NCBI GenBank assembly: GCA_049514515.1 | Contig: JBEKUZ010000017.1 | Location: 1,006 to 65,005, forward strand | Origin: Thermodesulfobacteriota bacterium | Lineage (GTDB): Bacteria; Desulfobacterota; BSN033; UBA1163 | Length of the DNA: 64,000 bases | Direction: 5' to 3' | Part shown: positions 15-11,918 of the stretch, piece after piece | Numbering within the stretch: the stretch's first letter is position 1 | Layout: each line of letters starts with the position of its first letter | Notes under the pieces: generated by a model | What the model saw: the letters and a program-made list of their open reading frames with translations, nothing else | Told to the model about the DNA's origin: nothing | Databases searched by the model: none | Program-made: the position numbers and the translations under genes

Positions 15-683
15 ATGGGACCGAAGCCTACAGGGCCTTTCAAAACCTTTGAGGATTTCAACAAGATTCATACAATGGTTTTTGTAGAGGAGAGGGAACC
101 TCAGGTAGCCATCACCTATTTTCAGTCTTTGATCGATGCCAACCCCCATCGTTGCGAGGGGTACTATGGTTTAGGTCTGGCCTATCGGAAGATGGGAAGA
201 TTCGATAAATCGATGGAAGTCCTTCAACAGGCGCACTCTTTGGCCCCTAAGGATCTCGATGTATCCAGAGAGCTGGGCATCGTTTATTTCCTTTCAGGAA
301 AGGTGGATCAGGCCATTGAGCATCTCGAGGCCTTACAATCCACTCCCGGACAAGGTCAACACAATGACCCGATGATGATTTATTACCTTGGGAGGGGATA
401 TCAGGAGAAAGGGGACCTTGCCAAAGCTCTCCCACTCCTTCTGAAGATTCAAAAGGAGAAACCTGAATTCCTTGATGTCTACTACTCCCTCGGATCTGTT
501 TACGGAAGAACAGGGCAGAAGGGACTTTCCCATTTCTATTTTGGGAAATATTTCAAATTAAAGCAGGAGAGAAACAACGCCCTCCTTCACTTCAGAACAG
601 CTATTGACTTGCTGGAGAGGGGAAGCCCCGAGAGAGAAGAAGCCCAAAGCGAGATCAAAGAAATCACGTCACCCAAACGATGA
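15..683 (+). CDS. Tetratricopeptide (TPR) repeat protein; possibly 5'-truncated by the window edge
   Basis: Repeated TPR-like helical motifs (GLGLAYRKMGRFDKSMEVLQQA, LGRGYQEKGDLAKAL, LGSVYGRTGQ). The ORF begins 14 nt into the window. Confidence 0.6.
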   Translation: MGPKPTGPFKTFEDFNKIHTMVFVEEREPQVAITYFQSLIDANPHRCEGYYGLGLAYRKMGRFDKSMEVLQQAHSLAPKDLDVSRELGIVYFLSGKVDQAIEHLEALQSTPGQGQHNDPMMIYYLGRGYQEKGDLAKALPLLLKIQKEKPEFLDVYYSLGSVYGRTGQKGLSHFYFGKYFKLKQERNNALLHFRTAIDLLERGSPEREEAQSEIKEITSPKR

Positions 684-931
684 AACATTTATGGGAGGGC
701 AACCCATCTTTTCCATCCATTTTTAAAAAGGCCAACATTATATCCGAGACCCAAGACGACTACCGGTTCAAGAGAGACGAAGGCAGGATGAAGCCCGCCG
801 AGGTTTATTGCAAAGAGATTTTAGAGATCGGGGTTGACTCTTAGTGAAGTGATTGTGATATTCCCCCACGGCCCAATTGGGTGAACGGTTCGGGACCTTG
901 CTTGGCCAAGGTCCATGGGAGAGACGACCGC

Positions 932-3625
932 ATGAAGGAACGGACGAAGAAGTCGAAAGAGGAAATGATGAGGCTCAATCAGGAGCTTTCGATCCTCAAT
1001 GCCATCGGTCAGACCGTCAATCAGTCCGCCGATCTGGACGAAATTCTGAATAAGAGTGTGGATAAGATGATGGAGATGATCGACGTCCACCAGGCCAGCA
1101 TTTATCTTTTTGACGAAAAGAAGGGCGAGTTGACGTTAGTGGTTCATCGCGGATTTTCCAAGAAGTTTTTGGAACTTATGAAGCATAGAAAGTTCGGGGT
1201 AGGAATATCTGGAAAAGTTGCCCTCTCGGGTGAGTCGGTATTCGTGGAGGACTACCCCAATCATCCGGATGCCTTAGCCATTGCGGTTGAGGATGGGTTG
1301 AAGTCCCTGGCCGTTATCCCCGTTAAGTCGAGAGACAAAATCTACGGGGTGTTAAACATCGCGAAAAAAGAATTTTCAGAGATCGCTCCGTTTGATAAAA
1401 ACCTCTTCAACTCGATCGGACAGATCATCAGCGGAGCGATGGAGAGAACTTTTCTTTATACCGAGAACGTTAAACGTCTGGAAGAGCTGAAGACGCTCTA
1501 TTCGATCAGCCAGGAGATTGCGTCGAAACTTGAGTTAAAAGTGATTCTTCAGAAGATCGTGGAGAGCGCTGTGGAGCTCTTGGGTGGTGATTCAGGAGCC
1601 ATTTCCCTCTGGGACAATCGAAAGCAGAATTATTCTATTGCGATTGTGCATGGATTATCCGAATCGTTTATTGGAATGGAAGTTTCTCAACCCGGGGGTG
1701 GTGTGTCAGCGGAGGTGATTGCCAAGAAGTCCCCCGTCGTCTATAAGGATTATGAGCACCATCGTAACCGATTAGAAGCATTAGATTCCTATCATATTCA
1801 AGAAGGTTTGGGCGTGCCTTTAACCGTTAGGGAGATGATTATTGGGGCGATGGTGATTTGTTCTTCTAACCCTGAGGTCCACTTTAAACAAAAAGAGATC
1901 GATCTTCTGTACAACTTTTCCCATCAGGCGGCCGTGGCTATTGGAAATGCCAAACTCTACGAGGATTCTTTGGCAAAGATCAAACAATTGACTACCCTTT
2001 ACGAGATGGGGAAAACCCTTTCCTCTACCCTGGATCTTGACGATTTGCTCAAAAAGGCATTGGAACTTCTCAAAGAGCGTTTAGGCTACACCGCCTGCGG
2101 AATTCTTCTCCTGGATAAAGAAAAGGACGAACTCTATATGAAGCAACTCATCGGCGGAAATCTGGAGGAGATCAAGAAATTCAAATTTAGAGTTGGAATC
2201 GATGGTATTGTGGGTTGGGCGGCCAAAACCGGGGGACTCGTTTATGTCCCCGATGTTTCCAAGGATTCCCGATACATTCCTGTGGGACCTTGCATCAAAT
2301 CGCAGGCAACCTTTCCTCTCAGGGTGAGGGATCAATTGTTCGGAGTTTTAGACATTGAGAGCGATGAACTCAACGGGTTCGATGAAGAAGATTTGAAGAC
2401 GCTCTCTTCCTTTGCGAGCCAGATGAGCATCTCGATTGAAAATGCTCAGCTTTTCTCCAATCTGAAGCAGACGCTACAGGAATTAAAGCAGGCCCAGGAC
2501 CAGATTGTACAGGCTGAGAAATTAAGAGCCATGGGAGAGATGGCCAGTGGCGTGGCTCACGATTTTAATAACGTCTTGGCTGTCGTCCTGGGGAACATTC
2601 AGCTCCTCCTCCATCAGTTGGATCACCTGAGCCCTGAAGAAGTTCGTGAAGGCTTGAAAACCATTGAGCGCTCCTCGAAGGATGGCGCGGAGACGATCCG
2701 TCGTATACAGGAATTTACGGGCGTGAGAAGGGATAGAGAGTTTGTCACCCTTTCTCTCAACGAAATCATGATGGAAGTCGTGAACATTACTCAACCCCGT
2801 TGGAGGGATCAGACACAAAAGAAGGGGATACAGGTTGGATTGACAACTCACCTGGGAGATATCCCTATGGTTATGGGGAATCCTTCTGAACTGAAGGAGG
2901 TGCTGACCAATATCGTTTTCAATGCTGTCGACGCAATGCCTAACGGGGGTAAGCTGACGGTCACCACGCAACCCCAAGCAGAGGATTGGGTGGAAGTGAG
3001 GATTGCGGATACAGGAGTCGGAATGACCGAGGAGGTGAAAAGGAGGGTTTTTGACCCATTTTTCACCACAAAGGGCGTGACGAATTCCGGGTTGGGAATG
3101 AGCGTTTCCTACGGGATCATCAAGCGTCATGGAGGCGAAATCCTGATCGAAAGCGAATTAGGAAAGGGGACGAGTTTTGTCATTCACCTGCCGACAGGAT
3201 ATGGGGAAGAAGAAGCCGTTGCGAAAGAGGTCACCCCGGTCAAGGAGTCGCGACAAGCACGGATCCTGGTGATCGACGACGAAGATTCTGTTCGAGATGT
3301 TCTCTCCCGCATGTTGAAGGCTAAAGGTCATCAAGTGGCAGTTGCCTCCAACGGCGAAGAGGGAATTGAACGGTTCAGATCTGAGCCATTTGATTTGGTT
3401 TTCACGGACCTGGGAATGCCGAAGGTCTCTGGATGGGAAGTGGGAAAGACGATCAAGGCGATCAATCCCAAAGTCCCCATCGCCATGATCACCGGATGGG
3501 GGGTGGAGCTGGATAGAGAAAAGTTGAGCGAAAGCGGGATTGATCTCAGCATCGCTAAACCTTTCAACTTCGATCAAGTGATTAATTTGGTCTTCGAAGC
3601 CATGGAGTTGAAAGAAAGGATGTGA
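932..3625 (+). CDS. Hybrid sensor histidine kinase with multiple GAF domains, HisKA, HATPase_c and a C-terminal receiver
   Basis: GAF-like segments are present. H-box is AHDFNNVLAVVLGNIQLL. ATPase N and G boxes are NAVDAMPNGG and GVGMTEEV..GLGMSV. Receiver motifs are ILVIDDEDSVRD and FTDLGMPKVSG. The ATG at 932 has a GGGAGAG Shine-Dalgarno upstream; an alternative GTG start lies at 881. Confidence 0.85.
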   Translation: MKERTKKSKEEMMRLNQELSILNAIGQTVNQSADLDEILNKSVDKMMEMIDVHQASIYLFDEKKGELTLVVHRGFSKKFLELMKHRKFGVGISGKVALSGESVFVEDYPNHPDALAIAVEDGLKSLAVIPVKSRDKIYGVLNIAKKEFSEIAPFDKNLFNSIGQIISGAMERTFLYTENVKRLEELKTLYSISQEIASKLELKVILQKIVESAVELLGGDSGAISLWDNRKQNYSIAIVHGLSESFIGMEVSQPGGGVSAEVIAKKSPVVYKDYEHHRNRLEALDSYHIQEGLGVPLTVREMIIGAMVICSSNPEVHFKQKEIDLLYNFSHQAAVAIGNAKLYEDSLAKIKQLTTLYEMGKTLSSTLDLDDLLKKALELLKERLGYTACGILLLDKEKDELYMKQLIGGNLEEIKKFKFRVGIDGIVGWAAKTGGLVYVPDVSKDSRYIPVGPCIKSQATFPLRVRDQLFGVLDIESDELNGFDEEDLKTLSSFASQMSISIENAQLFSNLKQTLQELKQAQDQIVQAEKLRAMGEMASGVAHDFNNVLAVVLGNIQLLLHQLDHLSPEEVREGLKTIERSSKDGAETIRRIQEFTGVRRDREFVTLSLNEIMMEVVNITQPRWRDQTQKKGIQVGLTTHLGDIPMVMGNPSELKEVLTNIVFNAVDAMPNGGKLTVTTQPQAEDWVEVRIADTGVGMTEEVKRRVFDPFFTTKGVTNSGLGMSVSYGIIKRHGGEILIESELGKGTSFVIHLPTGYGEEEAVAKEVTPVKESRQARILVIDDEDSVRDVLSRMLKAKGHQVAVASNGEEGIERFRSEPFDLVFTDLGMPKVSGWEVGKTIKAINPKVPIAMITGWGVELDREKLSESGIDLSIAKPFNFDQVINLVFEAMELKERM

Positions 3626-4344
3626 TGGCCTCAGCGATTGATCCCATCGCGTTGGCCGACGAGGCTGGGAAGATTGTTAGTTCTGGAGAGGAAAGGAAAT
3701 ATTACCGATTCCGTCCTGCTCTTTATTACGGGGGGATCGCCACAGCTGACTGCGTGGGATGTTGTTTGAGGTGCCTCTTTTGCTGGTCCTGGCGCATCGT
3801 GGTTCAACCTGAAAAGGCAGGACGATTCTACTCGCCGGAGGAGGTAGCTGAAAATCTCACTTCGATCGCCGGGAGAAAAGGATTTCATCAAGTTCGGATA
3901 AGTGGTAACGAGCCCACCCTTCACCGATCCCACCTCTTAAGTGTTCTCGACCTCATTCCCAAGGAGATTCATTTCATCCTTGAGACCAACGGGATTTTGA
4001 TCGGCCATGATCCTTCTTATGCAAAGGACCTCTCCCGTTTCCCTCATCTCTATGTCCGGGTGAGCCTGAAAGGGGCCTCTCCTGAGGATTTCACCCATTT
4101 AACCAATGCAAGACCTGAAGGATTTAACTATCAATTGGAGGCGCTGGAGCACCTGGTGGGGGAAGGAATAAATTGTTTCCCGGCCGTGATGGCAAGTTTT
4201 TCTTCCCAGGAGGAGATAAAAAGTTTGAGGCGGAAATTAAAGGGGATCCGGCCCGATTTTGAAGACTTTGAGGAAGAGGAATTGATTCTCTACCCCTTCG
4301 TGTTAGACCACCTCCGGAAAGCCGGCCTTTCTTATTCAATCTGA
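3622..4344 (+). CDS. Small radical SAM enzyme of the PFL-activase-like type, overlapping the stop codon of the histidine kinase
   Basis: CxxxCxxC motif in CVGCCLRCLFCWSW, of the C-L-R-C-L-F-C type seen in glycyl-radical activases. The GTG/ATG start at 3622/3625 overlaps the kinase TGA at 3623-3625. Confidence 0.65.
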   Translation: MMASAIDPIALADEAGKIVSSGEERKYYRFRPALYYGGIATADCVGCCLRCLFCWSWRIVVQPEKAGRFYSPEEVAENLTSIAGRKGFHQVRISGNEPTLHRSHLLSVLDLIPKEIHFILETNGILIGHDPSYAKDLSRFPHLYVRVSLKGASPEDFTHLTNARPEGFNYQLEALEHLVGEGINCFPAVMASFSSQEEIKSLRRKLKGIRPDFEDFEEEELILYPFVLDHLRKAGLSYSI

Positions 4345-4359
4345 AATCTAAAATTGTGT

Positions 4360-5280
4360 CTACCACCATCGCCAGAGGGCAATAACAAGGGTGATCAAGA
4401 AGACGAAAATGAGATTCATGTAAGCCATGAAATAGAAAACTTTTTCGTATGGCGGTTTTTCAGGTTTTGTTTCAACTGGCGTCAGCTCGGCTATTTCGGG
4501 CATCGTCCATATTTTCTCTTCCCCATGAGGCGCTGTCTTAAGAAGATCTGTCAAGTCATTGCCTGCCTGATGCTTTTTGAAGTGGGTTCCTCCTTTCCAA
4601 ACCTTACTCAGACATACATCATAGACCTTGCCTTTGTAAGCGAAATAGGCTGGTCTATTCTCTGTACCGTCAAAATGTGGGAGGTCATCGAAGGTCATTC
4701 TGGCCTTGGGTTGAGTGGGGATGGAAGTCCTTTGTTTCCTGATTTTAGGCCCAATCACAAATGTCACGATGAAGGCCGTCGCCACCATGATCGCGAACAG
4801 GAATATCTTCACGCTCAATAAAATTCCAAATCTTGTGGCATAGAAGATTTTCCATGCTGGGATTCGAGAGACCGTTAACAGCGTTCCTGTAATCGAAAGG
4901 ATAACGATCCCAAGCCACCCGAGGATCAGTTCCCCTTTTGGAAGACCTTTTGCTGCATACGCCGGTTTCAGCAATATATGGACATATAGAATAGTTCCAA
5001 ACCAGGCAATGGCCATCAGAAGATGGACGTATCCGACGATCAACCGGACCACTTTTTGAATGGTACTGAGAGGGCGATAAATGCCTTTCGCTTTCAGATC
5101 TTCCCTGAAGGCTTCTCCATTCTTTGTCAGTTTTCCTCCTGTGGCATCCACATGACAGACCTTACACTCAAACCCCGTCTGTTGAGCATATTCAGGATTG
5201 GAGTGCGAAACCGCAGGGACACAAATGATGGATAGGAAAAAGAGGGCCAGAACATGGGTATTCAAAAGAGACTTCATCAA
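4360..5280 (-). CDS. Membrane-anchored c-type cytochrome fused to a C-terminal cytochrome b5-like heme-binding domain
   Basis: Signal peptide, then a single CKVCH heme c motif, then about 4 TM helices. The C-terminal segment FDGTENRPAYFAYKGKVYDVCLSKVWKGGTHFKKHQAGNDLTD matches the cytochrome b5 / MAPR-like fold (VYDVT..HPGG..AGxDxT pattern). Confidence 0.6.
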   Translation of the reverse strand: MMKSLLNTHVLALFFLSIICVPAVSHSNPEYAQQTGFECKVCHVDATGGKLTKNGEAFREDLKAKGIYRPLSTIQKVVRLIVGYVHLLMAIAWFGTILYVHILLKPAYAAKGLPKGELILGWLGIVILSITGTLLTVSRIPAWKIFYATRFGILLSVKIFLFAIMVATAFIVTFVIGPKIRKQRTSIPTQPKARMTFDDLPHFDGTENRPAYFAYKGKVYDVCLSKVWKGGTHFKKHQAGNDLTDLLKTAPHGEEKIWTMPEIAELTPVETKPEKPPYEKVFYFMAYMNLIFVFLITLVIALWRWW

Positions 5281-5387
5281 TCGGTCATTTTAAGCGTAAA
5301 GAGATCTTTGAACAAAAGGGCGAACAAATCTTACGGTAACACTTCATGTTCGAACTCCATTTCGTTGTCTGTTTTTACCGAGGTTAA

Positions 5388-5870
5388 CTATCCCACCAGG
5401 CAGACGGCTATTCCTGCTCCTCGACTGGTGATCTTGTTCGCAATGCTTCCCATGAGAGCGTGTGCCGTAGCCGAGGCACCGCATCGTCCCATAATCAGAG
5501 TCTGATATCCCCCCGCCTTGGCTTCGGCCAGAATGCATTCCGCCGTGTTTTTGACGGACTCGGAAACCGACTTCGTTTCGATCTGCTTCGGGTTGATCCC
5601 TCTCTGCGTGAGGCTCTCAATCGCGGGCTGAAAAACAGACTCGATCTTGGCCTGTTGGTTGGCCAGCCACTTGTCGAGAACTTTTCTTCTGGCCGCCTTT
5701 TCCTCTTCATTCAGGATATGCCCGTCATCCCAGAGCTCCGGAGGAACTCCCGGGGAGACATGATAGAGGGTGATCTGTAAATCACTTATACCCGTGAACT
5801 GTTTGCCCGCATAGTCCACTGCTTTTGAAGCGCCCTCTGAGCCATCAATGGCAATCAATATCTTTCTCAC
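5388..5870 (-). CDS. uspA: Universal stress protein (UspA family)
   Basis: MRKILIAIDGSEGASKAV at the N-terminus and the C-terminal ATP-binding-type motif LIMGRCGAS...GSIANKI. 22 nt downstream of the qNOR stop codon. Confidence 0.8.
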   Translation of the reverse strand: MRKILIAIDGSEGASKAVDYAGKQFTGISDLQITLYHVSPGVPPELWDDGHILNEEEKAARRKVLDKWLANQQAKIESVFQPAIESLTQRGINPKQIETKSVSESVKNTAECILAEAKAGGYQTLIMGRCGASATAHALMGSIANKITSRGAGIAVCLVG

Positions 5871-5892
5871 GTCGATCCCTCCTTTTCGCCCA

Positions 5893-8160
5893 TCATCTTC
5901 TCACGAATCGATAGGTGAGTCCTGCTGAAATGAGTAAAGGGACCACGCCCAACAGAATGAAAACGGCATCCGCCGGCAAACGCATCCACTCGATCAGAGT
6001 GGTGATGCGAGCATTTAGAAACTCAGGACCTCTCGCATGCCAATATCCGTTCTTCAATACATCGAAGAACTGGAGCACGCCCCCAGGAAAGAGATTCAGA
6101 ACCACCATCCCCGCCAGGCCGATATTCAGCCCCCAGAAGGAGAGCCGAATATATTTCTCCACCCGTGCCCACTCTTCATCGGGCAATACCTGCCGAATGG
6201 CGAAAACCATGAAGGCAACAGCGAACATTCCGAACACGCCCATCATCGCAGCATGGCCGTGATTGGGGGTGAGTATCGTGCCCACCTCGAAATAGCTGAC
6301 AATAGGCAGGTTGATGAGAAACCCGAATATCCCAGCCCCGACAAAGTTCCAGAATCCCACCGCCATCATAAAATAGAAGGTCCATTTGTGAGGGATCGAG
6401 ATTTCTTTGCCGCAGATGTCGCATTTTCCCTCGGACAACTTTATAAAGTCCCAGGCATCCAGTGTCAGCAGTGTCAGGGGTACGACCTCCATGGCGGAAA
6501 AGGTGGCGGCAAAGGCCATCGTTACGTTTGACTGTCCCGTCCAATACCAGTGATGCGCCGTGCCGATGATGCCGCCCCCGAGGAAAAGAATCGCATCTAA
6601 GTAAATGACCCGGGTTGCTGTTATTCGGGTGACCATTCCGAGCTTGTAGAAGAGGACAGCCACCATCGTGGTGACAAAGAGTTCAAAGAAGCCTTCCACC
6701 CACAGATGGATAATCCAAAAACGCCAGTTGTCCACCACCGTGAAGTGGCTCGTACTGGTGAAGAACATGGCCGGTAGATAAAACAGAGGAATCGCAAGAG
6801 CCGCCAACAGGAAGAGGGTGGAAATCTCACGTTCTTCCGGTTTTTTTCTTGCGGGACTGCTCGCTCTGAATATCAAGACGAGCCAGATGATCAGGCCGAT
6901 CGCCAGCAAAATCTGCCAGGCACGACCCAGGTCAAGATATTCCCATCCCTGATGTCCAAACCAGAACCAGAGTTTTCCAAGGAGTTGATAGACGCCAAGC
7001 ATCTCGCCCAGCAGACTGCCGAAGACGACGATAACCAGTGCAACAAAGAGAAAATGGATCCATTTTGCCTGGCCTTTTGGTTCTCTGCCTCCCAATGAGG
7101 TGGCGAGAAACAACCCTCCTGCGATATAGCCGGTGGCTATCCAAAAGATGGCTAACTGTAAATGCCAGGTGCGAAAGACATTGCCTGGAAAGAATGAAGA
7201 TAGATCAATGCCATAGAAACTTCCCGGATCGGCGCGGTAGTGAGCCGTTGCGCCTCCGACGAGGACCTGGGCTAAAAATAGCAAGGCAACAACTACAAAA
7301 TACTTTATTGTCGCTTTCTGGCTTTCGGCGACCGCCCCGGGGATCATTTGAGGATGGATATGTTCGCCCCCACCTTTCCAGCCAAGAAAATTGAATCTGC
7401 CGAAGGAGAAAAGAACGATGGCTGTTCCGGCAAGGAGGGTAATAAGGCTCAAAGCACTCCAGAGAACCGCGTCACCGGTTGGTGTATTTCCGATCATGGG
7501 ATCGTAAGGGAAATTATTTGTGTAAGAAAATGATTTCCCAGGACGATTTGATGCGGAGGCCCATGCGGTCCAGGCAAAGAAAGCGGTCAGTTGCTGGAGC
7601 TCTTTTGGATCCTTGATATGGTTGATCAGCAAGCCTCGATTTAACAGGGGTTGTGCAAAGTATTCTGTCCACTTTCTTATTTGGTTTCCGTAAGACATTA
7701 CTTCAGGAAGGGTGAAGGTCAACGTTTTGGTCTGCTGGTCATAGCGATTCTGTTTCAGCAACTGCTGGACTTCTGCAGTGACGGCAGCTCGTTCAGTCAA
7801 TGTGAGGTCCTGCCACTCGAGATGATAAATCTGTTTTGCGAGGAGGGTACTCGTATCCACGGCAAGCGTGTGAAGATACTCGGCGGAAAAATCAGGCCCG
7901 AGATAGGCACCGTGCCCCCAGATGGTCCCATTCTCCATCAGTCCGTATTTCAGGAAGACTTGTTGGCCAGTCACGATATCGTTGTGGGTAAAGATCGTTT
8001 CCCCGGATGGACCCACAACATTTTCGGGAATGGGTGGGGCATCCTCATGCGCCCGGATGGCCATCCAGATCAACACGGAAAACCCTATGACTAAGACGAT
8101 GATAACAGACCTTCTCCACCAGGGGGACAGTTTTTGAGAAGGACCTTTTTTCTCTGCCAT
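5893..8160 (-). CDS. norZ: Nitric oxide reductase large subunit, quinol-dependent type (qNOR / NorZ)
   Basis: 755 aa. One N-terminal TM and a roughly 200-aa hydrophilic domain (GLMENGTIWGHGAYLGPDFSAEYLH), then a 12-TM heme-copper-oxidase core. The non-heme Fe ligands are canonical (HLWVEGFFE and GTAHHWYW). The heme b/b3 ligands are canonical (NHGHAAMMG). The M24 stop and the qNOR start are 22 nt apart. Confidence 0.8.
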   Translation of the reverse strand: MAEKKGPSQKLSPWWRRSVIIVLVIGFSVLIWMAIRAHEDAPPIPENVVGPSGETIFTHNDIVTGQQVFLKYGLMENGTIWGHGAYLGPDFSAEYLHTLAVDTSTLLAKQIYHLEWQDLTLTERAAVTAEVQQLLKQNRYDQQTKTLTFTLPEVMSYGNQIRKWTEYFAQPLLNRGLLINHIKDPKELQQLTAFFAWTAWASASNRPGKSFSYTNNFPYDPMIGNTPTGDAVLWSALSLITLLAGTAIVLFSFGRFNFLGWKGGGEHIHPQMIPGAVAESQKATIKYFVVVALLFLAQVLVGGATAHYRADPGSFYGIDLSSFFPGNVFRTWHLQLAIFWIATGYIAGGLFLATSLGGREPKGQAKWIHFLFVALVIVVFGSLLGEMLGVYQLLGKLWFWFGHQGWEYLDLGRAWQILLAIGLIIWLVLIFRASSPARKKPEEREISTLFLLAALAIPLFYLPAMFFTSTSHFTVVDNWRFWIIHLWVEGFFELFVTTMVAVLFYKLGMVTRITATRVIYLDAILFLGGGIIGTAHHWYWTGQSNVTMAFAATFSAMEVVPLTLLTLDAWDFIKLSEGKCDICGKEISIPHKWTFYFMMAVGFWNFVGAGIFGFLINLPIVSYFEVGTILTPNHGHAAMMGVFGMFAVAFMVFAIRQVLPDEEWARVEKYIRLSFWGLNIGLAGMVVLNLFPGGVLQFFDVLKNGYWHARGPEFLNARITTLIEWMRLPADAVFILLGVVPLLISAGLTYRFVRR

Positions 8161-8181
8161 GGTATTCTCCTTAGCGTGAGT

Positions 8182-9303
8182 CTATTTCTCAAGTTGCCGA
8201 GGATATTCGGTTAGAACCATCGGTCCTTTCAGGCTCACCACCACGGTGTCTTCTACCCGGACGCCCCACGGACCTGTGTACAATCCACAATTACCTACTG
8301 CGATGACTACGTTCCTCTCGAGAGGAAGTGGCTCTTTCTCCCCATGGAAGAAGGCATGGCCCGGAGGCAAAGGAGATTCCTCGAAGTCAATGCCCACCCC
8401 ATGAATGGGAGGTCCAAAGATATGCCCGCCATGCCCTCCTTCTTTGACCACTTGACGAAGCGTCTGCTCCAACTCAACCATTCCAACTCCCGTCTTCACT
8501 TTGGCGATGGTGTTTTGCTGAGCTTTCAGATATAGATCGTAAGCGGTCTGCTGCTCGGCCGTCGGTTGACCTACACACACCGTCCTGCAGATATCCGCAC
8601 TATAACCGTTGACGATAGGATGGATGTCGATCATCACCAGATCGCCGGCCTGCAATTTGCGAAGTGTTGGAAAACCATGGGCAATATTCGTGCGCGGGCC
8701 AGAAGAGACGTAAGTGCGCCAGAACTCCTCTGCGCCAGCCCGTCGCATAGCAAACTCCGCCTTGGCCGCCACCTGGCTCTCCGTCATCCCTGGTTTCAAA
8801 GCTCCCACGGCTGCTTTCATTCCCTTTACAGCCACTTTTGCTGCGGCTTTGATGCGTTTGATCTCCTCTTTATCCTTGACGATACGCAATTCAGAAAGGA
8901 TGTGCGTGCAATCCTTGACTATTATTGCTGCAGGTTTGGCATGGGGATGGGTGAGTATGCCCATCATGGATTGTGTGAGAAAGGTATACTCCAGCCCGAC
9001 ACTCCCTTCTTTCACTCCAAAATGTTCAAAGTTGTGGGCGATGGAGTGGATCATCCCCACTTCATCATCAAAGCCAACGATGTGATCAAAGTGGGCGAGT
9101 TGTTTTACATCCATGACATCGGTTTGCGGAACTCCCAGAGCCACCTTTCCATCCTGAGTGATCATGGCATAGGCGCAGAGTCGCCCGTCACCTGTCAGGT
9201 AGAACATATTCGAAGGTTTGGTGAGCAAAAGGACGTTGAGACCTGCTTCCTTCATCAATTGGCTGCATCGCGTTAGACGTTCCGGATATTGTTGAGCACA
9301 CAT
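8182..9303 (-). CDS. M24 family metallopeptidase (Xaa-Pro aminopeptidase / creatinase fold)
   Basis: Pita-bread-fold metal-ligand context: DLVMIDIHPIVNGYSADICRTV, HGVGIDFEESP, and the N-terminal creatinase-like domain. Confidence 0.75.
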   Translation of the reverse strand: MCAQQYPERLTRCSQLMKEAGLNVLLLTKPSNMFYLTGDGRLCAYAMITQDGKVALGVPQTDVMDVKQLAHFDHIVGFDDEVGMIHSIAHNFEHFGVKEGSVGLEYTFLTQSMMGILTHPHAKPAAIIVKDCTHILSELRIVKDKEEIKRIKAAAKVAVKGMKAAVGALKPGMTESQVAAKAEFAMRRAGAEEFWRTYVSSGPRTNIAHGFPTLRKLQAGDLVMIDIHPIVNGYSADICRTVCVGQPTAEQQTAYDLYLKAQQNTIAKVKTGVGMVELEQTLRQVVKEGGHGGHIFGPPIHGVGIDFEESPLPPGHAFFHGEKEPLPLERNVVIAVGNCGLYTGPWGVRVEDTVVVSLKGPMVLTEYPRQLEK

Positions 9304-9324
9304 TTCTAAGCCTCCATTGATTCC

Positions 9325-9355
9325 CCTCGCCCCCCTTTATAAAGGGCGGGCGAGG
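9325..9355 (-). other. GC-rich stem-loop between the octaheme gene and the M24 peptidase gene (CCTCGCCC...GGGCGAGG)
   Basis: Inverted repeat seen directly in the sequence. No U-run follows on the transcribed strand, so it could be an RNA processing or stability element or a partial attenuator. Confidence 0.4.
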
Positions 9356-9359
9356 ATTA

Positions 9360-10610
9360 TTATTTCTTTTTTGCCTTTTCATGCATTTCTGCCGCCATTT
9401 CCTTAATTTCTGTCAGGTCCCTCTGCATCTCGCTCCAGCCATACCAGAAGGCATAGTCCGGGTTCGCATGAAATGCTCCTTCGAATGTCCTCATCCGGTG
9501 TTCGAGAAACATGACAAAGAGTTTTTGCTCGACGACGGTTGGAGCATCAGAAAAGGTGAGCAAGTCCGGAAACGGATAAGCATAGTTTTTGGGTTTGGGA
9601 AGGATGCCGTCTTTGTAAAGACTGGCTACTGTCCGGATTGCCTCTGCCATGAGACGATCTGCGTCTTTAATCGTCATATCGCCTTTTGCCAGCTCTGCTT
9701 TAGCAAAATTGATAGAGTGACATCGGTTACATGCCTTAACCATCTTGTCGCGCTCTTTCTGCCAATCTTCCTGGGTCAGCCGGGCCACATTTGCCGCCTT
9801 CACCACGTCTAAGCGGTCGGTCGGTTTCCCTTCAGGGTCGAGAACCCCAAGGGCCTGTAGAATCGTTGCACGGTCAGCGGCCCACTGCTTGTCCTCCGGC
9901 ATGGGGAGTCTCACGGCAAGAAATCCCCAGGCTGTGAGTACACCGTGATTTCCGTTCTGCATATGGCAGGTCTGGCAGGTTGGGGCGGAAATGGTTGAAG
10001 GGAGCACCTTGATTTGCTTAAGCATGTATCGGACGCCATGTTTCGAGCCAGAATACATCTCCCATTGAGGATGGTCGAAACCCGTGTGGCAGGTCTGGCA
10101 GGCCTGTGGTTGCTTCGCTTCCTGAACGGAGAAAGTATGCCGGGTATGGCATGCGTCGCAGGAGGCCAGGCCAAATCCTACGCCTTCCTTCTTTAATTCC
10201 TTTATGTCGGTTTCGCTCTTCAGCCCAATCTTGTGGCATCCTCCGCAGCCCTTCATGCCTTCGATCAGTTCCATGGGTTGCCAGTGTATGGTAGGCATTG
10301 CGTTCATCGCCGCCCACGCAACAGCATGCTTTCCGCTTTTGAATTGTTTTACCCGGGCTTCATGGCACGCTCCGCACGTATCGGGAGTGGGAATTTTCGC
10401 CTTTGCCACATCTTGAGCCGTTTTGTGTTGATCACCATGGCAATCTGAACAGCCAACCTTATTCTGATGGTGTTTGCTCAGTTGCCAATCCGAGACAATA
10501 TTAGGCGTAATTTTTTTATGGCATTCCACACATACCTGGGCTGAAGCAACAGAAATAAAGACCAAACTAAAGAAAGTAATAAGCACCGTTCGAAATGTTA
10601 TTCGTCCCAT
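9360..10610 (-). CDS. Octaheme c-type cytochrome with HAO-family-like heme spacing
   Basis: Signal peptide followed by eight canonical CxxCH motifs (CVECH, CSDCH, CGACH, CGGCH, CDACH, CQTCH, CQTCH, CNRCH). Seven lie in the first ~220 aa and the eighth follows an ~80-aa gap, as in hydroxylamine-oxidoreductase-like octaheme proteins. There is no CxxCK or CX15CH motif. Confidence 0.6.
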   Translation of the reverse strand: MGRITFRTVLITFFSLVFISVASAQVCVECHKKITPNIVSDWQLSKHHQNKVGCSDCHGDQHKTAQDVAKAKIPTPDTCGACHEARVKQFKSGKHAVAWAAMNAMPTIHWQPMELIEGMKGCGGCHKIGLKSETDIKELKKEGVGFGLASCDACHTRHTFSVQEAKQPQACQTCHTGFDHPQWEMYSGSKHGVRYMLKQIKVLPSTISAPTCQTCHMQNGNHGVLTAWGFLAVRLPMPEDKQWAADRATILQALGVLDPEGKPTDRLDVVKAANVARLTQEDWQKERDKMVKACNRCHSINFAKAELAKGDMTIKDADRLMAEAIRTVASLYKDGILPKPKNYAYPFPDLLTFSDAPTVVEQKLFVMFLEHRMRTFEGAFHANPDYAFWYGWSEMQRDLTEIKEMAAEMHEKAKKK

Positions 10611-10848
10611 ATCTCCCTCCTTTTGAGATCATATTCCAATAAGGTGATCATTTCCGCTGCCTGCCCTGTATCCCGCGAGACGCGGGACTAGGTTCAGGGC
10701 CTGTCGGCAGGTCGGTGATTGGATTTCGGTATGATAAGGTTGTAGGCTTACCCTCCTTAGCCCCTACCTTCATGGTCTCTTTCCATTCTAAACATCTCGC
10801 CATTCCTATATCAATCTTTTTTTTGAGATCTTTTTAGGTTCAGGGTAC

Positions 10849-10899
10849 GCCCCGCCCTCGGTCTGGACCGGGGCCGGCAGGCAGGGGCGGGGTTCTTTT
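10849..10899 (+). terminator. Strong GC hairpin (GCCCCGCCC...GGGGCGGGG) followed by TTCTTTT, downstream of mlaD
   Basis: Inverted repeat plus a T-run. It lies in the 330-nt gap that also carries repeated ggttcaggg..cggcagg motifs. Confidence 0.4.
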
Positions 10900-10937
10900 C
10901 TCGTATGGTCGCCTTAATGAGTAAGGCTGCGATGGGT

Positions 10938-11918
10938 TTAAAATACGCTGAATTTAAGGTATTTCTTTGGGTGTTCTTTGATATCTTTCGCCAGGCCCTC
11001 CAATTCGGAGCTCAATTTCCTAAGCTCCAGAAGGAGATCTCGCAGCTCCTTTACAAGTTCTTCATCGCTGAGTAATGCTCCTGCCATGCCTTTGCCTTTT
11101 TCTACACCTTCCAAGATAGAGGAGAGCCGTGAGGCCGCCTGATTGAGGTTGCCGTACAATTCAGGGTCTTCAATCAGTTTCTTCAACGTCCCGGAGCCCT
11201 CATTCAGTTTTCTGGTAAATTCTTCAATCGATGAGATCGTCGTTGCGGTTTTTTTGTAGAGAGAGGGGTCTTCGATGAGCATCTTCAAGGTGCCCTCAGA
11301 ATTTTTGATGTCTTCTAATAGCAGAGCAAGGGTTTCTGTGGACTTCTTTAGATTATTATAGATGGCAGGGTCGGTGAAAAATTTAGCAACGGTCCCTTCC
11401 CCCTTTTCCATTTTCGTCACAAGGATGTCGAGTTTGTCTATGAAGTCGCCCATTTTCCCGATGGCTACAGAAGTAATCTCGATGATCTGGGAGAATTGGA
11501 TTGCCTCTGTTCCCTTTATCAGTTCGCCAGGTTGGAGTGGCGCTGCCCCGGGAGAGCCGGCACTCAGTTCAATGTATTTGTCGCCCAGAAGTCCCATGGT
11601 CAGAATACTTGCTTGGGAGTCCTTTTTGAGAAACCTCAGGGCGTCTTTATTAATAGAAATGGTCACGATGGCTCCGCGGACTGGGTCCAAGTGGATGTTT
11701 CTCACGGAGCCTACCTCTGTGCCGAATATCCAGACAGGGGCACCTCTTCTTAACCCTCTGACATCCCGAAACTCTGCTTTCAACTCGGTCTTTGGTGAAA
11801 ATATTTTCTCGATGTTTCCCGCAAAAAACACGGCCACCAATAGTGCTAAGAACGCAATCGTGATGACCAGACCGGCCTTTAGTTTTGACCATCTGAGCTG
11901 TTTTTTGATATCGAACAT
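10938..11918 (-). CDS. mlaD: MlaD/MCE-domain protein (periplasmic component of the Mla phospholipid ABC transporter)
   Basis: N-terminal TM helix, MCE domain, C-terminal coiled-coil repeats. Last gene of mlaE-mlaF-mlaD. Confidence 0.75.
   Translation of the reverse strand: MFDIKKQLRWSKLKAGLVITIAFLALLVAVFFAGNIEKIFSPKTELKAEFRDVRGLRRGAPVWIFGTEVGSVRNIHLDPVRGAIVTISINKDALRFLKKDSQASILTMGLLGDKYIELSAGSPGAAPLQPGELIKGTEAIQFSQIIEITSVAIGKMGDFIDKLDILVTKMEKGEGTVAKFFTDPAIYNNLKKSTETLALLLEDIKNSEGTLKMLIEDPSLYKKTATTISSIEEFTRKLNEGSGTLKKLIEDPELYGNLNQAASRLSSILEGVEKGKGMAGALLSDEELVKELRDLLLELRKLSSELEGLAKDIKEHPKKYLKFSVF

Follow-up and report, generated by a model that had tools for sequence, protein, structure and literature searches.

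A candidate nitrogen-oxide island around a reductive-type octahaem cytochrome in a Thermodesulfobacteriota lineage

Do an octahaem cytochrome from the family of hydroxylamine oxidoreductase (HAO) and a nitric oxide (NO) reductase (NOR), encoded almost side by side, act on the same nitrogen oxides? The question is raised by a 64,000-nucleotide stretch of DNA from a Thermodesulfobacteriota bacterium living in sediment (GenBank assembly GCA_049514515.1, contig JBEKUZ010000017.1, positions 1,006 to 65,005), referred to here as the window. Positions 4360-10610 of the window hold five intact open reading frames (ORFs), all on the minus strand, which encode an HAO-family cytochrome (Hao), an M24-fold protein, a quinol-dependent NOR (qNOR), a UspA-family protein (Usp) and a membrane protein with haem-c, CopD-like and cytochrome b5-like parts (CopD/b5). 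A first-pass annotation had described five packed genes, with gaps of 56, 21, 22 and 107 nt, as a candidate nitrite-to-NO-to-N2O module; the gaps agree with the ORF coordinates (Table 1), and each of its domain calls was recovered in a Pfam scan. No second multihaem cytochrome is encoded elsewhere in the 64-kb window. In relatives, it is the pairing of Hao with a NOR that persists, through changes in the type and position of the NOR. The reading preferred here, to which we give about an even chance, is that of a lineage-specific island for nitrogen-oxide reduction or detoxification, built around a highly conserved reductive-type HAO.

Hao matches PF13447 (Multi-haem_cyto) in Pfam at E 1.6e-30. 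It begins with a Sec signal peptide, which ends ...VASA/Q, and carries eight haem motifs, at residues 27, 54, 79, 122, 151, 171 and 212, and then at 294; all eight are CxxCH and CxxCK is absent. When a profile of its family was compared with solved structures, seven HAO-family chains (HAO, HAO-like and HDH) were matched with E-values from 2.7e-52 to 3e-37; these include Kuenenia HAOr (6H5L, 2.7e-52), HOX (4N4J, 9.5e-50), Nitrosomonas HAO (about 1e-46) and HDH (3e-37). No chain of OTR, ONR or MccA was matched at E 1e-3 or better, and the NrfA chain 3UBR gave a weak, partial match (E 1.2e-4). Clustering with tetrathionate or sulfite reductases, which the first-pass annotation had named as the result that would speak against the HAO family, was not seen. 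Membership of the OTR, ONR, MccA or NrfA groups was ruled out, given that CxxCK is lacking and that similarity is confined, bar the weak match to 3UBR, to HAO-family structures.

Two features of the active site had been singled out for inspection, the Asp-His pair at the catalytic haem and the tyrosine which cross-links to it; the pair is kept and the tyrosine is replaced. The catalytic haem 4 is bound by C122GGCH, and the distal pair after haem 6, in C171QTCHTGFD179H180, aligns with CATCHSGVDH of NeHAO and is kept in 10 of 11 diverse family members. The alignment partner of NeHAO Tyr467 and of the KsHOX cross-link tyrosine is Phe388, three residues before the conserved Gly391-Trp392; an ungapped count from the invariant His381 puts Trp389, not Phe388, at this position. 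On either count the residue expected of an oxidative (P460-type) HAO is absent from Hao. When diverse members of the family are aligned, this column is occupied by Phe, Leu, His, Thr or Gln, never by Tyr. HAOs without the cross-link tyrosine are, as a rule, of the reductive type (PMC8042395, PMC12758564), and Tyr-less HAOs work as reductases in vitro (PMC8042395). Because this tyrosine is missing, Hao is assigned to the reductive type, and a reductive role is plausible from its residues.

Of the known members of the family, Kuenenia stuttgartiensis HAOr (Kustc0458/0457, 6H5L) is the best-scoring solved relative. It shares with Hao the octahaem fold, eight CxxCH motifs and the lack of a cross-linking tyrosine; it is reductive on nitrite, NO and hydroxylamine, and forms NO from nitrite (PMC8042395). 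The window Hao is, however, about 100 residues shorter and a distant match: the family profile scores HAOr at 181 bits, barely above the 173, 166 and 160 bits of oxidative HAOs. Because these scores lie so close together, Hao is placed, on sequence comparison, in a clade apart from the HAOr subfamily and without specific affiliation to it. The window locus does not encode a dihaem partner like Kustc0457, its sole other c-haem motif being the CxxCH of CopD/b5, and anammox genes are lacking in the host, a Thermodesulfobacteriota bacterium. The epsilonproteobacterial Hao (epsilon-Hao) of a non-nitrifier, as reported in papers that cite Haase et al. 2017 (PMC8042395, PMC8940962), is described as a Tyr-less enzyme which reduces nitrite and hydroxylamine in vitro. 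Both it and Hao have a Trp at or beside the Tyr-equivalent position, whereas the signature Met of epsilon-Hao, eight residues before that Trp (PMC8940962), corresponds to the invariant His381 in Hao, a comparison which uses the published description only. Among ten distant representatives whose clusters were looked up, none bore an epsilon-Hao label, and the one organism name obtained was that of a Clostridiales MAG. The nitrifier HAO-c554-cM552 system and anammox HOX/HDH belong to the same protein family and have the same Asp-His pair, but they oxidise their substrates with a Tyr-haem P460 cross-link; the window has neither the tyrosine nor genes for c554 or cM552.

The window qNOR is catalytically complete, as judged from its residues. 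It contains NorB_cytochrome_c-like (PF22085) and COX1 domains (E 1e-57 and 8e-56) and matches Geobacillus qNOR (3AYF) across residues 16-746 at E 1.4e-174. Alignment to 3AYF bears out the earlier statement that the catalytic His and Glu residues are retained: the ligands of haem b, haem b3 and FeB are all kept (His333, His485, His536/537, His634/636), as is Glu489 near FeB, which lies with His485 in HLWVEG. In the quinol site His307 and Asp731 are kept, and Asp311 is found where Geobacillus has Glu332. The window qNOR contains no CxxCH haem-c motif.

Evidence that the two enzymes are linked comes from relatives. The window's lineage was defined as loci in which Hao is at least 78% identical to that of the window and which share the same GAF-kinase/DUF2284/M48 backbone; these loci, cited here by L numbers, were gathered from exact-protein look-ups and a metagenome scan and were analysed by tblastn. 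In the lineage Hao lies at one chromosomal site, often with MlaEFD on one side, and with a GAF hybrid kinase, DUF2284 and M48/TPR genes on the other. Several loci resemble the window's own order, Hao-M24-qNOR-Usp-CopD/b5. An added rubrerythrin gives Hao-M24-rubrerythrin-qNOR-Usp-CopD/b5 in L003, L170 and L171, and shorter forms are Hao-M24-qNOR-Usp (L089), Hao-qNOR-Usp (L001), Hao-M24-qNOR with the qNOR split (L086) and Hao-qNOR (L090, L111). In other loci the NOR lies upstream, as cNorC-cNorB-Hao with or without M24 and CopD/b5 (L007, L087, L103, L107, L109, L114, L117, L129). This upstream NOR is a true cNOR, with NorB matching 3O0R_B at E 2e-121 and a c-type cytochrome gene before NorB. The remaining arrangements are Hao-M24-PFK-CopD/b5 (L005, L096, L098, L099, L102, L113), Hao-Usp (L088) and Hao alone (L006). 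Close relatives thus differ in whether they have M24, Usp and CopD/b5; this Hao does not keep the five-gene layout as a unit, and the notion of a conserved five-gene module has to be given up.

Pairing with a NOR is nevertheless robust in the lineage. With well-flanked loci taken as those readable for at least 3.5 kb on both sides, and a NOR counted when within 6 kb of Hao, 11 of the 13 well-flanked loci in the lineage have a NOR near Hao: six have a qNOR downstream, five have cNorCB upstream, and none has both. Among well-flanked loci from elsewhere, 2 of 53 have a NOR (L127, L150), a difference with a Fisher p of 5e-9 when the relatedness of the loci is ignored. The expectation that the adjacency would recur in related genomes therefore holds inside the lineage, with two NOR types, and fails outside it; among the best 80 loci of a scan with one genome per species, no NOR, M24, Usp or CopD/b5 gene occurs within 10 kb of Hao except in L007, itself a member of the window's lineage. 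On a neighbour-joining tree of Hao the loci of the cNorCB-Hao(-CopD/b5) type form the basal group, the window falls in an all-qNOR clade, and a third clade mixes qNOR, cNOR and PFK loci. Because qNOR- and cNOR-type loci are intermixed on this tree, the Hao-NOR link has outlived several replacements of NOR type and position, and this is a signature of functional coupling and not just of a single inherited arrangement. In the literature no described Hao-NOR gene cluster, and no swapping of NOR type beside Hao, was found. Classical nir-nor clusters (NirS or NirK with cNOR or qNOR) likewise set a candidate periplasmic nitrite/NO enzyme beside an interchangeable NOR; they differ in having a cd1 or copper Nir in place of a multihaem HAO, and at the window locus no NnrR/DNR/FNR box was found and hao is apparently insulated.

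Some lineage loci are unusual in other respects. The qNOR is split into a NorC-like part and a COX1 part in L086:10499-12782 and L172:9515-11477, possibly by pseudogenisation or by assembly frameshifts. In a whole sub-clade a gene for phosphofructokinase (PFK) lies between M24 and CopD/b5 in place of qNOR-Usp (L005:12520-13611; also L095, L096, L098, L099, L102 and L113), an odd insertion of a glycolytic gene in a cytochrome locus. At L107:7242-9389, cNorCB and the main hao are separated by two extra genes for distant Hao-like proteins (29-32% identical). L171, which has the rubrerythrin-containing order, is ERZ25039519 contig_16283, whose 2,968,949 bp are nearly genome-sized.

Beyond the lineage Hao belongs to a large clade, with at least 7,648 matches at E <1e-10 among 8,000 candidates scored. 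The loci were searched with an alignment of 11 Hao sequences; a diverse alignment of 29 sequences was set aside as too divergent. ORFs in high-GC loci were called with a GC3 filter; choice of the longest ORF yields antisense shadow ORFs. In the best 80 species loci Hao is 67-80% identical to that of the window and comes from more than 10 phyla, the groups represented being Acidobacteriota, Ignavibacteria/Bacteroidota, Nitrospirota, Gemmatimonadota and Aminicenantes, together with Zixibacteria, Latescibacterota, Verrucomicrobia, Anaeromyxobacteraceae and others; the G+C content of these loci (L006-L085, with Hao near 10001-11250 in each) ranges from 0.33 to 0.72. Identity of this order across so many phyla implies unusually strong conservation and a wide horizontal spread of the Hao of about 416 residues.

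The neighbours of Hao vary across this wider clade, and no gene family is shared by more than 19 of 83 Hao loci. In a census of immediate neighbours at 105 Hao loci outside the window's lineage, the downstream gene encodes ResB (system II cytochrome c biogenesis) in 17 and DAO in 4, while upstream are found multihaem c7/c3/MtrC-like cytochromes (13), Yip1 (10), hemerythrin (4) and NrfA (2). Recurrent arrangements are MtrB-like porin - multihaem - Hao - ResB - CcsA - NapC-like, ABC - Yip1 - Hao - DAO, Hao - Rieske - cytochrome b - second Hao-like, and Fer4_5 - hemerythrin - Hao. L011, L018, L019, L023, L025, L027, L040 and similar metagenome loci share a conserved cluster of a small Hao-like gene, an MtrB/PioB-like porin, a large multihaem cytochrome, Hao, ResB, CcsA and a NapC-like multihaem gene, which resembles an extracellular-electron-transfer conduit with an HAO in it. 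In metagenome-assembled genomes (MAGs) labelled Cytophagia (L022, from 5300-5791 onward, and L031), the genes after Hao encode a Rieske protein, then cytochrome b and another Hao-like protein of the octahaem type, a cluster resembling the HAO-containing bc1-type complexes of anammox bacteria.

A few loci in other phyla tie Hao to nitrogen oxides. One Anaeromyxobacteraceae MAG and one from the Bryobacterales encode the pentahaem nitrite reductase NrfA directly upstream of Hao; in a MAG of Ignavibacterium it is found two genes upstream of Hao (PF02335, E 1e-133 to 2e-172; L080:7647-9161 and 9229-10527, L021:9556-9921, L070:7069-8571). In L127 a cluster on the minus strand at 205-4535, qNOR - RIC/YtfE (ScdA_N + hemerythrin) - hemerythrin plus an unknown gene, is divergent from Hao at 5030-6277 and represents a classic nitrosative-stress gene set. 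In L150 cNorCB lies 1.5 kb downstream of Hao. The links to NrfA, to qNOR-RIC-hemerythrin and to hemerythrin support a nitrogen-oxide role independently of the lineage, and suggest that this cytochrome clade handles nitrogen oxides. Nitrosative-stress sets (norB/qNOR, ytfE/RIC, hcp, and NrfA as a periplasmic NO scavenger) share with the loci described here a NOR accompanied by stress proteins, namely Usp in the window, rubrerythrin in L003/L170, and the qNOR-RIC-hemerythrin cluster beside Hao in L127. To our knowledge Hao is not a described member of nitrosative-stress regulons.

Three further proteins are encoded in the cluster. The M24-fold protein has Creatinase_N and Peptidase_M24 (PF00557) domains (E 5e-46) and matches 1PV9 at E 9e-45. 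Four of its five metal ligands are kept (Asp226, Asp237, His301, Glu351), while the fifth, Glu313 of Pyrococcus prolidase, is replaced by Asn338 (Gly336 in the HMMER gapped alignment): residues 335-342 read AVGNCGLY where prolidases have ITIEPGIY. Because GNCG is kept in 117 of 120 orthologues, an altered active site is suggested rather than decay. The earlier name 'M24 peptidase' thus stands for the fold; since a glutamate ligand is replaced, peptidase activity is doubtful, and 'peptidase' is best read as a fold label. Orthologues of the protein occur with Hao but no NOR, with NOR but no Hao (L172) and, in L173, in unrelated surroundings beside a Haem_bd protein. Usp matches PF00582 at E 4e-14 and has the ATP-binding motif G-x2-G-x9-G-(S/T), here GRCGASATAHALMGS, at residues 128-142.

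CopD/b5 scores barely above the Pfam cut-offs for CopD (33.7 bits; cut-off 32.1) and Cyt-b5 (26.0; cut-off 23.7), and well under the cut-off of the NCBIfam CopD model. Its start is probably the ATG at 5277, which gives 305 residues and matches the length of orthologues. It consists of a signal or anchor helix, a C39KVCH haem-c motif, three transmembrane (TM) helices, a b5-like domain and a C-terminal TM helix. His86 and His101 in the TM region, and His233, His237 and His252 in the b5-like domain, are invariant in orthologues. The haem-c motif is assigned to the periplasm, and the positive-inside rule predicts the b5-like domain to be cytoplasmic; an AlphaFold2 model from a shallow alignment (mean pLDDT 50.5, pTM 0.29) is too poor for use of the fold. 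In L117, L118 and L129, which are more basal loci, the gene comes directly after hao. Because of its periplasmic c-haem domain and this position beside hao, CopD/b5 is the best candidate redox partner that Hao might have to itself.

Transcription signals suggest that the five genes fall into two units. The GC-rich stem-loop found 5 nt past the hao stop codon forms 13 pairs at -26.4 kcal/mol (z = -3.1, matched by 0 of 200 shuffles) and is the sole such structure in the window; no U tract follows it. Hairpins, often long and perfect, are found right after the hao stop in many lineage relatives, with differing sequences. In L096, L098, L100, L102, L113, L129 and L006 they have U tracts and are canonical intrinsic terminators; no such hairpin is present in L001, L088 or L089, where the next gene follows closely. 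The stem-loop is likely to act as a partial terminator or 3' stabiliser, insulating hao from the downstream genes. Upstream of hao, the 327 nt at 10611-10937 (minus strand) contain a GC hairpin after mlaD and then a leader of about 170 nt, which carries a GC-rich inverted repeat (CCTGCC...GGCAGG). A promoter candidate, recognised by consensus match alone, lies after this hairpin and some 175 nt upstream of where hao starts; consensus scans for promoters and terminators gave no more matches than in shuffled sequence. Each of hao, M24, qNOR and usp has a strong Shine-Dalgarno site before it, with M24, qNOR and usp linked by gaps of 21-22 nt; no clear site is found in the 107-nt gap before the CopD/b5 gene. 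No Rfam family was found in window positions 4000-11200. The post-hao hairpin and the promoter-like site, together with the solitary hao of other phyla, suggest that hao is transcribed alone or attenuated, with M24-qNOR-usp as a tight unit downstream. The earlier proposal that the stem-loop sets transcript levels is borne out as to the hairpin, which recurs at the same position in many relatives, and its idea of differential transcript levels agrees with the two-unit reading. The hybrid kinase which converges on the cluster was set aside as a dedicated regulator; it belongs to the conserved backbone and is present without NOR (L006) or without Hao (L172).

Table 1. Positions of the features discussed, in the numbering of the window
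Feature	Position	Strand	Basis or remark
hao, HAO-family octahaem cytochrome c, reductive type, 416 aa, periplasmic	9360-10610	-	PF13447, CxxCH motifs, alignments
M24-fold prolidase-like protein, 373 aa, cytoplasmic	8182-9303	-	Creatinase_N + Peptidase_M24
qNOR/NorZ, quinol-dependent nitric oxide reductase, 755 aa	5893-8160	-	PF22085 + COX1, ligands
UspA-family protein, 160 aa	5388-5870	-	PF00582, ATP-binding motif
Haem-c/CopD-like/cyt-b5-like membrane protein, 305-306 aa	4360-5280	-	Pfam, CxxCH, TM helices
GC-rich stem-loop past hao stop	9325-9355	-	Folding, shuffles
Sigma-70-like promoter candidate, TTGATA-18-TAGAAT	10785-10814	-	Consensus match, 10/12 positions
Hybrid histidine kinase, three GAF domains	881-3625	+	Converges on cluster
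Small radical-SAM gene	3622-4344	+	Start overlapped 4 nt by GAF kinase

If the nitrogen-oxide island is real, its parts might work together as follows. From the gene identities and catalytic residues observed, we infer that the secreted octahaem Hao would reduce a small nitrogen oxide in the periplasm, be it nitrite, NO or hydroxylamine. In the membrane qNOR would use quinol to reduce NO to N2O, the NO being made or leaked locally or coming from outside; Hao and qNOR would in this way act on one nitrogen-oxide pool, and an obligatory linear pathway is not required. The most plausible protein to supply Hao, as its dedicated donor, with electrons would be CopD/b5, and Usp, with rubrerythrin in relatives, may serve as a stress accessory. 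With a promoter-like site of its own and a strong hairpin at its 3' end, hao would probably be expressed at a level other than that of the tightly packed M24-qNOR-usp unit.

Several observations weigh against a functional island. L005 and L088 are well flanked and yet have a Hao without a NOR within 8-10 kb, while L172 has M24 and a split qNOR with Hao missing at the site. Between mlaD and the GAF kinase the slot differs in content from locus to locus and also takes unrelated PFK, cupin and radical SAM genes, so some of the adjacency may reflect an insertion hot spot. The loci of the lineage are not independent of one another in phylogeny, and one species sampled more than once may account for some of them. 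Regular-expression scans upstream of hao found no FNR/DNR, sigma-54 or NsrR-like motif in the window or in lineage loci; the single FNR/DNR-like match lay in L151, which is not syntenic. Nor was an NsrR- or NorR-type regulator identified at the locus in a Pfam scan of the flanking genes, which was not a dedicated search. Outside the lineage most Hao orthologues have no nitrogen-cycle neighbour, and the multihaem/MtrC-like (13/105) and ResB/CcsA (17/105) neighbours fit a broader electron-transfer cytochrome.

These points lend themselves to a different account, in which Hao is a general periplasmic electron-transfer cytochrome, or one reducing sulfur or metals, held at a fixed chromosomal site, and NOR and the other genes have gathered beside it in an accessory-gene hot spot. 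The mosaic slot, with its PFK, cupin and rubrerythrin, and the MtrB-like porins, MtrC-like multihaem cytochromes and ResB/CcsA beside Hao in other phyla would be expected, and a sulfur role has been proposed for a Desulfobacterota HAO clade (PMC9213671). Chance would, however, hardly produce two NOR types which lie on opposite sides of hao, exclude one another and are intermixed on the tree. It would also leave unexplained the links to NrfA, RIC/YtfE and hemerythrin in unrelated phyla, and the conservation of the Asp-His pair of nitrogen-converting HAOs; no sulfur-metabolism family is found among the 25 commonest immediate-neighbour families on either side of Hao. Coincidence is for these reasons considered unlikely, yet a role outside nitrogen metabolism, in sulfur or extracellular electron transfer (PMC9213671), is a serious rival. 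A single obligatory operon, with the products of all five genes in one complex and M24 and Usp integral to it, is very improbable: the shared strand, the short gaps and the company that M24 keeps with Hao in many lineage loci are outweighed by the strong hairpin after hao and the terminators found there in relatives, by the long last gap without a clear Shine-Dalgarno site, and by the absence of M24, Usp or CopD/b5 from some close relatives, M24 being found moreover without Hao and in an unrelated context.

A stricter biochemical scheme was implied by the first-pass annotation, namely a linear, truncated denitrification independent of NirS and NirK, in which Hao is a dedicated, HAOr-like, NO-forming nitrite reductase and qNOR respires the NO to N2O. 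That the best-scoring solved relative, 6H5L, makes NO from nitrite (PMC8042395) speaks for it, as does the retention of a NOR through rearrangements and type swaps, which is to be expected if the product of Hao is toxic NO. The profile scores nevertheless reveal no specific affiliation with HAOr, and no Kustc0457-like dihaem partner gene is adjacent. Orthologues 67-80% identical to Hao in other phyla are almost never accompanied by a NOR, and three lie near the ammonifying NrfA; within the lineage, Hao persists in L005 and L088 with no NOR near it. Because of this combination an NO-forming Hao is not favoured, and the linear scheme is held to be improbable. Release of NO by Hao is not supported over formation of ammonium or hydroxylamine, as adjacency to NrfA agrees no less well with a role in scavenging or ammonification.

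Tyr-less HAO homologues rank with the most abundant 'nitrogen-cycle' genes of metagenomes from anoxic settings, and their function is known only in anammox bacteria and Campylobacterota; HAOs of the Desulfobacterota type have been treated as abundant and of unknown function (PMC9213671, PMC8940962, PMC12758564). In Desulfurivibrio dismutans no protein is up-regulated more strongly under dissimilatory nitrate reduction to ammonium than an octahaem cytochrome of a multihaem locus (PMC12142623), which may or may not belong to the Hao clade. The parts of the locus described here are all of known kinds, and what is new is the pairing of Hao with a NOR whose type is swapped. This pairing, together with the adjacency of nrfA and of qNOR-RIC-hemerythrin, provides testable evidence for nitrogen-oxide action of the clade, and concrete candidates can be named for biochemical and transcriptomic tests, including the relative on a 2.97-Mb contig (L171). 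A bolder possibility, which we regard as a long shot, is that the Tyr-less HAO clade of about 416 residues, spread over more than 10 phyla, is an unrecognised periplasmic nitrite/NO reductase which in this lineage, with a new kind of relay and a qNOR or cNOR, would form a nitrite-to-N2O respiratory branch; the relay would run through periplasmic haem c, membrane His-ligated haems and a cytoplasmic b5-like domain. If Hao makes NO, organisms of this lineage would be N2O producers invisible to surveys based on nirS and nirK markers, and, were the bolder possibility true, anoxic sediments would have in such a NirS/NirK-independent branch an overlooked source of N2O.

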